A stretch of 64,000 nt of DNA. It comes from Rickettsiales bacterium (GTDB taxonomy: Bacteria; Pseudomonadota; Alphaproteobacteria; Rickettsiales; Rickettsiaceae). Every line of letters starts with the position of its first letter. Position 1 is the first letter of the stretch. The position numbers and the translations under genes were made by a program. The stretch spans positions 9,755 through 73,754 of the forward strand of contig JAXMDS010000004.1 in assembly GCA_046348705.1 (NCBI GenBank). The letters are read 5' to 3'. The notes below the pieces were generated by a model. The model did no database searches and was not told where the DNA came from. It worked only from the letters and a program-made list of their open reading frames with translations. Below, piece by piece: positions 43,876 to 48,497 of this stretch.

Positions 43876-45324
43876 CTAGTGGTAATGCACTAATTTTTCT
43901 TGTCCTGCATATAATAAAGTATCATTAAAAACATCTACTTCTATACTAGTAGAAACATCTTTTTTTGTATCGTACTCTTCTAATGAAATATTTTTTTCTT
44001 TATCGTCTTCTAATAAATCATTCTTTTGTTGGTTACTTTTTAATTGAACATTTCCTCCTATACTAGTAGAAATATCTTTTTTTGTATCGTACTCTTCTAA
44101 TGAAATATTTTTTTCTTTATCGTCTTCTAATAAATCATTCTTTTGTTGGCTACTTTTTAATTGAGAATATTTAGTTAAAAAATATATAGAAGCCTTATCA
44201 ATATGTGTGCATTTGCGTTCTTGAGATAATAATACTTGATCAATTAAAGCTTGATCTATATCTAAAATTATTGCACAATATAAAAATGATTCATGTTCCA
44301 TGTCTTTAATTTTTGTTTCATCAGTACTAAAATTAATTAGATTTTTATTTAATTCATCAATTAAATAAATTAAAGTTTTTTTAATCGATTTTAGATCATT
44401 AAATTTTTCTAATGATGATGATGATGCTTGCAAAAAAGCATAATGATCAATAATCTTATCAATTATTTTAATATTATCTTTATTTGCATAAGTTAGATGA
44501 CTTAAAAAATATATAATTATATCTGTATCTGTATTTACATTATTACAAATATTATGAAAAATTTCTTTAATATTAAAGTTTATGATTTTAGATGATACAA
44601 GTTGATCAAAACCAAGAGTCTTAATATTATCATATAAATTAAATAAATATTTTTCATATTCATTATATAAAATACTAAATATATTTAATATAATATTAAT
44701 TAAATTTATATAATTCTTAACATTGAATGATTTTACATTATTAATTTTTAATAAATTATCGTCTTTTTCTAAATTATTAAAAGTTATATTAGATTCAATT
44801 TGTTTTTTCAATTTTAATAAATATTTATCTAATTTTTTTTATTTCTATCTGGTTCTTTTTTATTAAACTCTGGAATTAAAGAAATTATTTTATTAAGATT
44901 TAATTGAATTTTTTCTAAAGTATATATATCAAAATAATTTTTATTAGATTCTGTAAAAATATCTGTATTAAAATAATCTTGACTAGTATCTAATAAAGAA
45001 TAAATTAGAATTATTTTTAATATAAAAAATATTAATATTAAGTAATTTTAATAATTCTATAAATTGATTTTTTATATTTAGTATATCAATTTTAATTAAA
45101 TCAAAACTGTTATCATAATAAAAATTATTATTACGATTAATTTCAAATATATGATCAGATATCTTAAAAATTTTATTTTCAAATACATCAATTTTACATA
45201 TATAATTTTCTATATTTTTATGTAGTAAAGCATTTTTCTTATTAAGTATAAATAATCGTATTATTTCATCTAAAATTTTTATTTTACATGTTTCTTCATA
45301 GCCTAAAATTATACTACCACTCAT
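43876..45324 (-). pseudogene. Orphan gene split into three frames (track ORFs 44983..45324 and 43876..44811 plus a bridging open frame); ancestrally about 480 aa
   Basis: An intermediate frame (...SLLDTSQDYFNTDIFTESNKNYFDIYTLEKIQLNLNKIISLIPEFNKKEPDRNKKN*) bridges the two ORFs. A 1-nt change in the T6 run (plus-strand A6 45024..45029) fuses ORF 44983..45324 to the bridging frame. A 1-nt change in the A8 run (plus-strand T8 44843..44850) fuses that frame to ...LDKYLLKLKKQIES of ORF 43876..44811. The latter is otherwise opened only by a TTG. Confidence 0.5.
43927..44160. repeat. 117-bp in-frame tandem repeat x2
   Basis: TATACTAGTAGAAA...TTCTTTTGTTGG occurs at 43942 and 44059. It encodes LKS(S/N)QQKNDLLEDDKEKNISLEEYDTKKD(I/V)STSI twice. 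Confidence 0.9.
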
Positions 45325-46210
45325 GATAAAATTTTATCAAATTTTTAATATAATTTTTTACATCAGAAAAAATATTATCTATTAATTTATAACTTAAGTT
45401 CTTTTCATTTAAGAAAAATATTGATTCTATTGCTATAATATATTTTTTAATTTGAGTTGAGTATTTTTTTTCAGTATCCAATTCAATTAAACTAAAACTT
45501 TCATTATCTTCTTGATCATTATCTTCTTGATCTTTTTTTATATGGCTCAAGTAAAATAAATAAGTTTCTTTATTCTCGCCTTTAAGCAAAATAGTAAAAC
45601 CAAGTAAAATTGAAATAAAATTTTTAATACTACGTAATTTTATATTTATATCTTCTTTATCATGTTCAGTAATTTTAGGAATAATTTTGTTTAACAAAAA
45701 ATTATTATCAAGCTTAAACATTAAATTAATTATATCTTTTGCTGAAGTATAGTTATAATCTTCTTCTTGTATTTGTTTTATTTCATTTAAAAATTTTTTT
45801 TCTTGTTTAGGAAATATTTTTAATATTTTATCTTTTTTTAAATCGCTATTTTGAAAACCATATACCTTTTCTATTAAGAGCGCTATTTTATTTTGAAAAA
45901 TTGTTATTTTCTTAGTAAATATATTAAGAAATTTTTTTTCTTCTTGAGTTTTATTTTGTTTTATATCAATTGCATTTCTTATAAATTTTAAAAAAAATAA
46001 ATCTAACAATCTATTAAAAGCTTTTTCTTGTGCTGGATATTTTAGTTGTATTATTTCTTGATTAAATTTATTATTTAATATTTTTACTATAGGTAAAAAA
46101 ATTTTTGTTATTTTTTCTAAATTAAAATTATTAGTAACATTGAAATTAAGCTTAGATTTTTTTCTATCAAGAAAATTATGTTTATCTGAAATTGTTAAAC
46201 TTTTTCTCAT
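45314..46210 (-). CDS. Orphan 298-aa helical protein (orphan operon member)
   Basis: ORF only. Its 3' end overlaps the next ORF start by 11 bp. No motif recognised. Confidence 0.45.
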   Translation of the reverse strand: MRKSLTISDKHNFLDRKKSKLNFNVTNNFNLEKITKIFLPIVKILNNKFNQEIIQLKYPAQEKAFNRLLDLFFLKFIRNAIDIKQNKTQEEKKFLNIFTKKITIFQNKIALLIEKVYGFQNSDLKKDKILKIFPKQEKKFLNEIKQIQEEDYNYTSAKDIINLMFKLDNNFLLNKIIPKITEHDKEDINIKLRSIKNFISILLGFTILLKGENKETYLFYLSHIKKDQEDNDQEDNESFSLIELDTEKKYSTQIKKYIIAIESIFFLNEKNLSYKLIDNIFSDVKNYIKNLIKFYHEW

Positions 46211-46428
46211 AACTAAATAAATAATTATATAATTAATTATATAAATTTAATAATAAAAAGTAATAATAAATATTAAATAAATGTTATTTATATTTAATAT
46301 ATAGTATTATATATTCATTTAACATTACTTCAATTTGATATAATTTATATTCATACAAAAGGTATATAAAACTAAACTTTTAATTGCTATAATTATTTTG
46401 CAATTTAATACATATTTAAAAAAATAAT

Positions 46429-47421
46429 TTACTCAGTGTATTGTATTATATGAAAACCACTTATAGAAGAATCATCACCTATTATAATGCCACTTGGATT
46501 AAGGCAATCATTTATACTTTCAGTTTTATCTGGCTTATCTTCAATTAAGCTATCATCTGTACTTTTAGTGTTACCTGGATTATTTTTAATCAATTCATCA
46601 TTTGAATCTAATTCAGATCTATTAAGATTTAAATTAATTGTATTATCGTTATATATGGGTGATATTTTTAATAATTGATCCATTATTATTTCACACTGTG
46701 TTTCTTTTTCTGTTATACTTCCGAATAAATATAAAATTTTACTTAAATTATCTTTTTTGTTATAACTTGAAGTTTTAGAATAAATTTTTTGTTTTTCTTC
46801 TATTGCTAGAATAAATTCTGGAAAAAAATTTGAAAATTCTTTATATAATTCATTTGCAAATATTTGTTTAAAATTATATACATCATATTTTATACCTACG
46901 TCTCTTATTGTATTTTTAAGTGCATTATCTTTAAGAGATTCTTTTAAAAAATTTTTCAATTTATGAAATATTACTATTATATCTGATGTTTCTTTTTTAT
47001 CTAAATTTTTTTCATTAATAATATCTTCATTTTCATATAAAAAACTAATATCTAAATTCCTATACTTATAAAGTAAAACAAATATTTCCTTAAGTTTAAA
47101 AATTAATTGATTAATTTTTTTCTCTTCAATTACTTCTGTTTCAAAAAAATTTTTTAATAATTTTGCTGATTCTGGTATATCTTGAAGATTGCTAGATTTT
47201 ATTTGCATTTTCAGCTTTATTCTTTCTATAGTAGTCATTGGAGCTTGAATACTATCTTTAGCACTATTAAGCTCATTAATTTTAATTTGTAACGAGAAAA
47301 ACGATTTATCAAATTGATCTAAAAAATCTTTAATTTTTTCCTTAAATAAATTAGAAATTAATAAAAATTTATCAACTATTTTATATGCAATTTCTTTATT
47401 TTCTTCATTATAAAAATTCAA
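46429..47421 (-). CDS. Orphan 330-aa helical protein with Ser/Asp-rich tail (orphan operon member)
   Basis: ORF only. Its start overlaps the upstream ORF stop by 4 bp (ATGA-type coupling). No motif recognised. Confidence 0.45.
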   Translation of the reverse strand: MNFYNEENKEIAYKIVDKFLLISNLFKEKIKDFLDQFDKSFFSLQIKINELNSAKDSIQAPMTTIERIKLKMQIKSSNLQDIPESAKLLKNFFETEVIEEKKINQLIFKLKEIFVLLYKYRNLDISFLYENEDIINEKNLDKKETSDIIVIFHKLKNFLKESLKDNALKNTIRDVGIKYDVYNFKQIFANELYKEFSNFFPEFILAIEEKQKIYSKTSSYNKKDNLSKILYLFGSITEKETQCEIIMDQLLKISPIYNDNTINLNLNRSELDSNDELIKNNPGNTKSTDDSLIEDKPDKTESINDCLNPSGIIIGDDSSISGFHIIQYTE

Positions 47422-48497
47422 AACTTTAAGATTATAAAATCTAAAAAATTAAATATAATACAGTTATCTTGGGTGCATAGAATATTATATTTATATATAC
47501 ATTTAATAATTATATTTTTCATTAATTTATAGCTTGAAGAATCAAATTGATACCTTGAACAATAAGATTTATTAAATGAAGTAAATTTATTAGCAAATAT
47601 AAAAATTAATTTTATATTAAATTCTTTTAGTGAATTAATTTTATAATCATCACAATACTCGTTTTTAAAAAGTTGCAATATCTTATCAGCAATCTTATTA
47701 AATGAATTAATAAATTCTTTATTAGTTGATAATATAATCATATTGCATAAATAACTATATGAAATTATCAAATCATAATAAAGCATATTTTCATCTTTAA
47801 CTAAATCTATTTGAGAACAAAAACGAGTATCATTAAAATCTTCATATAAAATTAAAGAATAATTATTTAATATTTCTTTTATATCGATCAATTCATCACT
47901 GGTTATAAAACCATTTTTAAGATCTACTTGTTTTTTTGCATATTGTTTTAATTTAAATAAATATCCATCCTTATTTCCAATAAGATCATAATTCATATTT
48001 TGTAAAATAATTCTTATATGTTCATTTTTTTTATCTAATAAAACTTCATACCAATTTGGAATTAAATTTTTTAAATGCTCTTGCATTTCAAATAAAAACT
48101 TAAAAACATTAATTTTATTTGATATAGAATCATTCTCTTTAACATATGAAATTTTAATTAAAAAACCTTTACTATTGCATTCAGTAATAAAGTTTGCAAA
48201 AAATAAATTTTGATCTTTATAAATAAATAAATCCTTATTATTAATTTCAGAAAAAATATTATATAAAATATCTTTATAAACAGTAAGAAATTCTTCTATT
48301 AATTTATCTATATTATCTATTGATTTAAATGATTGTTGATTTAAATTACTATTATAAATTAATATATTATTATATTTGAAAGTTAATTCTTGTAATAATT
48401 GATTTTTTTTGCTTACATCAAAATTTATCAAATCCCAAATTAAATCTTTAGTATCTTTAATTGATTGTCTAAATAAATCAGACTGTGATATTTTCAT
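47418..48497 (-). CDS. Orphan 359-aa protein, relatively Cys- and Tyr-rich for this window (orphan operon first gene)
   Basis: ORF only. No motif recognised. Confidence 0.45.
   Translation of the reverse strand: MKISQSDLFRQSIKDTKDLIWDLINFDVSKKNQLLQELTFKYNNILIYNSNLNQQSFKSIDNIDKLIEEFLTVYKDILYNIFSEINNKDLFIYKDQNLFFANFITECNSKGFLIKISYVKENDSISNKINVFKFLFEMQEHLKNLIPNWYEVLLDKKNEHIRIILQNMNYDLIGNKDGYLFKLKQYAKKQVDLKNGFITSDELIDIKEILNNYSLILYEDFNDTRFCSQIDLVKDENMLYYDLIISYSYLCNMIILSTNKEFINSFNKIADKILQLFKNEYCDDYKINSLKEFNIKLIFIFANKFTSFNKSYCSRYQFDSSSYKLMKNIIIKCIYKYNILCTQDNCIIFNFLDFIILKF

Follow-up and report, generated by a model that had tools for sequence, protein, structure and literature searches.

Orphan genes between bamA and trpS in an AT-rich Rickettsiales genome: probable breakage by frameshifts rather than a maintained system

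In the window analyzed here, the whole 64-kb stretch of contig JAXMDS010000004.1 from a Rickettsiales bacterium, the 4.6 kb between bamA and trpS hold five minus-strand open reading frames (ORFs) of 359, 330, 298, 113, and 311 amino acids (aa) and a 72-codon open bridge frame. An earlier, sequence-only reading of this DNA saw in this block a maintained system of four genes. On balance, the block is probably made up instead of fast-evolving, weakly constrained, lineage-specific orphan genes, two or three in number, that are being broken by frameshifts. This explanation is carried by the junctions between the ORFs, by an excess of frameshifts in the A/T runs of the block, by the neutral rate at which the tail of the last gene changes, and by a comparison with the nearest sister genome.

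The ORFs lie on the minus strand exactly where the sequence-only reading had placed them, and the overlaps that it reported are present, 4 bp between the 359-aa and 330-aa ORFs and 11 bp between the 298-aa and 113-aa ORFs. The block is also, as had been claimed, the largest family-free stretch of the window, the runner-up being a 2.8-kb ORF (354..3188), and its guanine-plus-cytosine (GC) content is ~17-18% (16.8% and 17.8% in the two 2-kb windows that cover most of it) as against ~21% for the whole window. At this base composition, scans for promoters and terminators were uninformative. From bamA to trpS, the parts are as follows.

48838..51300, minus strand: bamA, the flank that precedes the block; a 340-bp spacer lies between bamA and the 359-aa ORF.
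47418..48497, minus strand: 359-aa orphan ORF, the first past bamA; ATG start; in-frame codon score 0.50.
47443..47448, minus strand: T6 run at the 359/330 junction; T7 would carry the 359 frame straight into the 330 frame.
46429..47421, minus strand: 330-aa orphan ORF; TTG "start"; acidic Ser-rich tail; weak 15-aa x2 repeat at 46498..46601.
46211..46428: spacer of 218 bp, AT-rich, with an ATAA-type microsatellite; divides the block between the 330-aa and 298-aa ORFs.
45314..46210, minus strand: 298-aa orphan ORF; ATG start; DQEDN x2 micro-repeat at 45501..45532.
44983..45324, minus strand: 113-aa fragment; ATG start; 11-bp overlap with the 298-aa ORF.
45024..45029 and 45014..45018: T6 run and A5 run, respectively, in the overlap of the 113-aa fragment and the bridge.
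44832..45047, minus strand: bridge of 72 stop-free codons in a second frame; overlaps the 3' end of the 113-aa ORF; codon score 0.89.
44833..44840, minus strand: A8 run at the end of the bridge; A9 would lead into the 311 frame.
43876..44811, minus strand: 311-aa fragment; TTG "start"; ends in a 117-bp x2 tandem repeat at 43930..44164.
43797..43875, minus strand: former 3' end of the last gene; peptide ISALPLEN...LQINLGTLE, out of frame here, in frame in a near-identical strain (L007, described below).
42453..43526, minus strand: trpS, the flank beyond the last ORF of the block.

The block ORFs are genuine protein-coding sequence, beyond what chance would produce. When the block was shuffled 300 times, the longest stop-free stretch had a mean of 72 codons and a maximum of 153, and inside confirmed genes an off-frame opening of at least 72 codons was found in one of 2,713 off-frame stretches. 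Scored with a codon model that had 31 kb of Pfam-confirmed window genes as its training set, all five pieces and the bridge reach 0.50-0.89 bits/codon in frame, compared with 0.43-1.03 for the confirmed genes, and the off-frames are strongly negative. Furthermore, the order GC1 > GC2 > GC3 of GC content at the three codon positions holds in the five ORF pieces. The codon score of the bridge and the rarity of an opening of its length make plausible the claim that a single ancestral gene of ~480 aa has been split into the 113-aa piece, the bridge, and the 311-aa piece.

The two overlaps are the only ones among the 34 same-strand junctions of the window, the 30 junctions outside the block being spaced by 7-789 bp. 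In addition, the next in-frame ATG of the 330-aa ORF is at codon 62 and the first of the 311-aa ORF at about residue 170 (as read off the translation); LolA is the sole Pfam-confirmed gene without an ATG in its first few codons. The uniqueness of the overlaps, the lack of a nearby ATG in these two ORFs, and the 218-bp spacer that halves the block all speak against the single transcription unit with translational coupling that had been suggested. In the explanation preferred here, the "coupled" junctions would be frameshift scars rather than sites of translational coupling.

At the first of these junctions, the 330 frame stays free of stops over the 9 codons before its TTG, as far back as the T6 run, and a T7 would fuse the two ORFs into a reading frame of 689 aa; it is probable that they are one broken gene of ~689 aa, with the 359-aa ORF as its N-terminal part. 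The last gene (113 + bridge + 311) is frameshifted, two or three times over. As in a frameshifted pseudogene, its coding signal passes on into other frames, and its C-terminal peptide is in frame in the near-identical strain. The placement of the A8 run at the end of the bridge has a probability of 0.03 as a coincidence, which makes it stronger than that of the T6 run. When all A/T runs of at least 6 bases are considered, there are no frameshifts in the 178 runs of the confirmed genes (31 kb) versus 2-4 in the 48 runs of the block (Fisher P = 0.044 to 0.002). This enrichment indicates that the breaks are tolerated mutations and not sequencing errors.

Part of the last gene can be compared directly with the near-identical strain, which is represented by a 1.9-kb Logan contig (L007, from SRR26192803) found via a protein in the same 90% cluster as the TrpS of the window. 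The contig reaches ~250 bp into the last gene, with 44054..48497 outside the comparison. The baseline divergence overall is 0.3-0.65%: trpS differs at 7 of 1,074 bp (6 synonymous changes and 1 nonsynonymous, for a ratio of nonsynonymous to synonymous rates, dN/dS, of ~0.04), the intergenic sequence 43527..43835 at 1 of 309 bp, and the sequence 3' of trpS at 2 of 343 bp. All 7 of the trpS differences (42453..43526 against 489..1562 of L007) are transitions, and in each of them the window has G/C where L007 has A/T, a one-way pattern indicative of mutation that is strongly AT-biased and polarised to one lineage.

In the tail of the last gene, 19 mismatches are packed into 175 bp and 8 into the 70 bp round the stop codon of the window (43836..43904), along with one 30-bp, three 1-bp, and one 2-bp indel and a 13-bp indel exactly at the end of the L007 ORF. 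Relative to L007, the frame is broken by a 1-bp difference at an A5 run (43894..43898) and by the 30-bp indel (43909..43938); the former, the only break that is comparable between the strains, is not a plain change of run length. The last-gene ORF of L007 ends ~25 codons later than that of the window (...ISALPLENSILPSEDLTKQDLIELQINLGTLEYKLI, stop), and its C-terminus is intact (...LIELQINLGTLEYKLI). A 39-aa unit near this end is present in 2 copies in the window and apparently in 1 copy in L007. By a hand count from the alignment, the changes in the last ~75 codons are ~15 nonsynonymous to 1 synonymous.

A hypervariable tail, changing ~20-fold faster than neutral sequence or the flanks, was considered and then dropped after conditioning on G/C sites. 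Mutation here falls almost wholly on G/C sites: at the synonymous third positions of trpS, 6 of 36 G/C sites differ and none of 311 A/T sites, and the corresponding counts for the tail are 19 of 70 and 2 of 158; the G/C comparison with trpS gives P = 0.33. Since the rate at G/C sites in the tail is indistinguishable from that at synonymous sites of trpS, the tail changes at about the neutral rate and is unconstrained. Thus, relaxed selection (dN/dS ~1) is found for the last ~75 codons of the last gene, and diversifying selection on the tail is not demonstrable. The description of the block as "maintained" does not fit a last gene with two or three frameshifts and a neutrally evolving tail.

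By sequence comparison, the block ORFs are true orphans. No piece has a significant match in Pfam, NCBIfam, PADLOC, or PHROGs, and PDB sequence searches of the 359-, 330-, 298-, and 311-aa pieces gave no match. An exhaustive phmmer search of 1.84 billion representatives with the repaired 359+330 fusion and the repaired 113+bridge+311 sequence as queries returned four self matches only, and a search of the 359-aa protein against 5.8 billion clusters returned only itself. The 298-aa ORF was covered by the family libraries, the PDB, and a scan of JGI metagenomes, the last of which revealed no relative. All five pieces are singleton clusters at 90%. The absence of a recognizable family, which had been claimed, is therefore borne out, with the large search bearing on the 359-, 330-, 113-, and 311-aa pieces. 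Anti-phage defence or a prophage remnant was also considered and rejected, because PADLOC and PHROGs gave no significant match and no flanking repeats or signs of mobile elements were found around the block.

The lineage is uncultured and has two detectable relatives in public data, the near-identical strain and one sister genome. The latter is an 8.7-kb Logan contig (L006, from SRR18715512) with the sole close relative of the window's BamA (52% identical). Beyond this sister, BamA is ~25% identical to anything, its named relatives being alphaproteobacterial, and a TrpS scan of GTDB genomes found relatives only at 27-50% identity. The pth-bamA order is common to the window and the sister (Pth 57% identical), and right after bamA the sister has a single ORF of at least 830 aa (6233..8722, plus strand) with no Pfam match. 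The C-terminal part of this ORF is E/K-rich and coiled-coil-like by eye. Nothing significant was found between it and the window ORFs by tblastn, blastn, or Smith-Waterman shuffles, the best z of 2.1 being at the level of unrelated controls, and by these comparisons the sister genome is without a detectable homologue at the site of the block. At a second syntenic site, S9-L12-L16, the window orphans beside L16 are likewise unmatched in L006. In the window as a whole, 15 of the 53 ORFs of at least 100 aa are without a family (~28%), which indicates that orphans are common in this genome; orphan turnover between relatives is general here. Both the unrelated orphan ORF at the same site in the nearest sister and this frequency of orphans count against the lineage-specific system that had been envisaged. 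The sequence-only reading had named neutral evolution together with absence from sister genomes as grounds for giving up its view; the former was found for the ~5% of the block that has strain data, and the latter for one sister contig.

The encoded products are soluble, probably helical, and rich in Asn, Lys, Ile, and Leu, some of them with acidic or Ser-rich tails that bear repeats. Ile, Lys, Leu, and Asn each account for 11-14% of residues, and Gly, Pro, and Ala together 2.5-6% per piece. Neither a transmembrane segment nor a signal peptide was found, with a maximum Kyte-Doolittle mean over 19 residues of 1.53 as against at least 2.5 in the membrane proteins of the window; composition and hydropathy thus confirm what had been read off the translations. 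The 39-aa x2 repeat reported for the 311-aa ORF is real (117 bp x2.0, 95% identity, 43930..44164). Single-sequence AlphaFold2 models of the repaired 359+330 fusion (predicted local distance difference test score, pLDDT, 34; predicted template modelling score, pTM, 0.20) and of the 298-aa ORF (pLDDT 36) are too poor to use, and their low-confidence secondary structure is predominantly helical.

Distant paralogy among the ORFs, which had been proposed from a short recurring segment, is not established by the sequence comparisons: neither pairwise shuffles nor a leave-one-out hidden Markov model (HMM) gives it support. All-versus-all BLASTP of the block ORFs yields nothing at E < 1, and the recurring motif is at chance level (a score of 34 against the 311-aa ORF and of 31 against a confirmed unrelated regulator). 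Shuffle z values are ~0 for all pairs except 298/311, which reaches 4.1 in global and 3.1 in block shuffles (P = 0.016, uncorrected); an unrelated orphan compared with the 311-aa ORF reaches 3.0 and 2.4. A 40-aa tail unit shared by the 298- and 311-aa ORFs (z = 4.5) was rejected, because the leave-one-out HMM of the 311-aa and L007 units fails to retrieve the 298-aa ORF.

Taken together, these results have led to the following model. Two units, one on each side of the 218-bp spacer, would lie in the reduced and very AT-rich genome of an alphaproteobacterial symbiont (Rickettsiales- or Holosporales-like). The first would probably be a single gene of ~690 aa, now 359 + 330; the second would consist of a 298-aa gene and a ~480-aa gene (113 + bridge + 311), which could even be one gene of ~780 aa. 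Breakage would occur by single-base indels, the two best-localised breaks lying in or beside A/T homopolymer runs. Constraint would be weak, and at least the last gene would be a pseudogene in this strain. The proteins may have had an accessory role, possibly after export, and may now be in the course of loss.

Several observations weigh against this model. First, a run of at least 6 bases would fall within a 28-bp window by chance with P = 0.32, and the T6 run at the 359/330 junction may be a coincidence; as evidence the T6 run alone is weak, because such runs are so frequent in the block (one per ~96 bp). Second, a proper ATG opens the 113-aa ORF, whose 11-bp overlap could be real coupling. 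Third, the weak alignment of the 298- and 311-aa ORFs is near-collinear from residue 1 (z ~3-4); if it is real, the 311-aa ORF would be an independent gene with a TTG start. Fourth, the strain data cover ~250 bp of 4.6 kb and consist of a low-complexity tail, where a functional protein could tolerate changes. Finally, 811 single substitutions could create stops, yet ~1,400 codons stay open, with a probability of 0.067 for no stop at 1% neutral divergence. This low probability implies that the ORF bodies are still under selection or that the breaks are very recent, and the open ORF bodies keep two other readings alive, that of a functional operon and that of phase variation.

The first of these, which is possible although doubtful, is that the block is a functional, maintained orphan operon of four or five coupled proteins serving as a host-interaction or effector module or as a structural complex. 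Long ORFs that are free of stops and gene-like in codon structure, in a genome prone to the creation of stops, are consistent with it, as are the common direction of all the ORFs, the soluble products with acidic or Ser-rich repeat tails, and the records of an NCBI-derived collection, in which each of the five pieces is entered as a protein of its own with identical boundaries. However, no other same-strand junction of the window overlaps, two of the pieces start at TTG without a nearby in-frame ATG, and the last gene requires two or three frame corrections and has a neutral tail. Furthermore, there is no homologue at the syntenic site of the sister, no secretion signal was seen, and family-library scans of the 64-kb window found no secretion-system genes. 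A host-interaction or effector role for the products is at most possible. Among known secreted effectors are the acidic, Ser-rich tandem-repeat proteins (TRPs) of Ehrlichia and Anaplasma, and the last gene resembles them in its acidic, Ser/Thr-rich 39-aa x2 repeat near the C-terminus, in the strain-variable copy number of this repeat, and in the Rickettsiales-like host. Unlike the TRPs, it has no sequence similarity to them, only two repeat copies, a frameshift in this strain, and no type I secretion genes or signal shown; moreover, an acidic, Ser-rich repeat of strain-variable copy number, although present in the last gene, is not a feature specific to effectors.

The second reading, phase variation, is unlikely. 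It holds that these are contingency genes, in which changes in the length of A/T runs or transcriptional slippage toggle full-length surface or secreted proteins. Contingency loci with on/off switching are present in Mycoplasma, Neisseria, and Haemophilus; in Buchnera and Blochmannia, genes with a frameshift are rescued by slippage on poly(A) tracts, and efficient slippage is usually tied to runs of 9-10 or more. In the block, a single additional base restores the frame at the A/T runs that hold or adjoin the 359/330 and bridge/311 breaks; repeat copy number and the C-terminal frame vary between near-identical strains, and the ORF bodies are open despite the breaks. However, the runs are short (T6, A8), and with a run of at least 6 bases every 96 bp the coincidence is weak. 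In addition, the single break that can be compared between strains (43894..43898) shows no simple change in run length, and surface exposure of the products is without support. Like the split genes of Buchnera and Blochmannia, the block has breaks at A/T runs, neighbouring frames that are open and coding-like, an AT-biased decaying genome, and an apparent second frameshifted gene in the window (glnA-like, 7405..8230). It differs from their slippage in that its runs are shorter, 6-8 bases. A related idea, which is quite unlikely, is that the site after bamA serves as a hot spot at which this symbiont clade keeps and quickly replaces lineage-specific exported proteins of host interaction, with expression toggled by frameshifts in homopolymer runs and by changes in repeat number, the "broken" state being one phase of a contingency system and not decay.

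The bamA-skp-lpxD-fabZ-lpxA cluster is typical of Gram-negative bacteria, and, like its members, the block genes lie directly downstream of bamA on the same strand. That the block consists of housekeeping genes diverged past recognition, such as skp-lpxD-fabZ-lpxA or other missing essentials, is very improbable: although this location and the high divergence of the lineage's proteins (as with BamA outside the sister) fit such a view, no block ORF has a family match and a 340-bp spacer follows bamA, Pfam and NCBIfam searches up to an E of 1 give no hint of OmpH, hexapeptide-repeat, FabA/Z, or Lpx proteins, the low-confidence predicted structure is mainly helical with no left-handed beta-helix or hot-dog fold, the other housekeeping genes of the window are easily recognized, and conserved genes are 50-96% identical between the window and the sister while the block ORFs have no match whatever.

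In the window around the block, the gene order is scrambled, and the genes include those for COX3, subunits of ATP synthase, LolA, Lnt, DegP, an NtrC/NtrX-like regulator, DUF2155, and a stand-alone PolA 3'-5' exonuclease; Alr, DapB, and BamA are encoded as well. Rfam matches within the window are limited to two tRNAs. IOLA, a Rickettsiales bacterium with 20.7% GC, has homology to known proteins for only half of its coding sequences (CDSs), clustered single-nucleotide polymorphisms (SNPs) between strains, and a reported absence of cytochrome oxidase and cell-wall genes (PMC8155191). Like IOLA, the present genome has ~20% GC, many CDSs without a detectable homologue, and SNPs of near-identical strains that are clustered in short segments. 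Unlike IOLA, it has COX3, Alr, DapB, Lnt, LolA, and BamA, and no sequence relation of the block ORFs to anything was found; the respiratory and cell-wall genes indicate that the window is not IOLA.

A number of other features of the window were observed. Usual operons are split, with atpA and atpH on opposite strands and L7/L12 followed directly by L16 (10304..12722, 22975..23829). Another ten ORFs with a minimum length of 100 aa, the longest of 944 aa, have no Pfam family, among them 354..3188, 24115..25719, 25770..26264, 29342..30668, 31458..31772, 33168..34601, 36644..36982, 62823..63830, and 13317..13637. A glnA-like ORF (7405..8230, minus strand) covers part of the catalytic domain of glutamine synthetase, whose motif IQIGFEVEFYI lies just upstream in another frame, and looks like a second frameshifted pseudogene of the window. 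The LolA ORF (6046..7044, minus strand) has its first in-frame ATG at codon 243, with none before the domain; it starts at a codon other than ATG, or else its 5' end is damaged. The 301-aa single-stranded DNA-binding protein SSB (40428..41333, plus strand) matches its family only at residues 128-240, and ribosomal protein S9 (21882..22724, minus strand) has an N-terminal extension of ~156 aa, the S9 of the sister also being long (306 aa). TrpS (42453..43526, minus strand) contains a short internal near-duplication at residues ~30-62 (...SNKEYKYVGPLQNRLETQISNKEYKCY...), which by eye looks like an insertion relative to the family. The 2-kb window with the lowest GC content (13%) is 12001..14000, in which no ORF reaches 100 aa over a gap of 594 bp (12723..13316).

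If the model of orphan genes being broken by frameshifts is correct, then genome erosion in a tiny, AT-rich symbiont would account for the block as one of its ordinary by-products. The block would gain in importance if its proteins proved to be expressed host-interaction factors. If the model holds, the value of the block lies mainly in two cautions for genomes of this type: tight junctions between ORFs may be frameshift scars instead of signs of coupling, and seeming hypervariability may disappear after AT-biased mutation has been taken into account.

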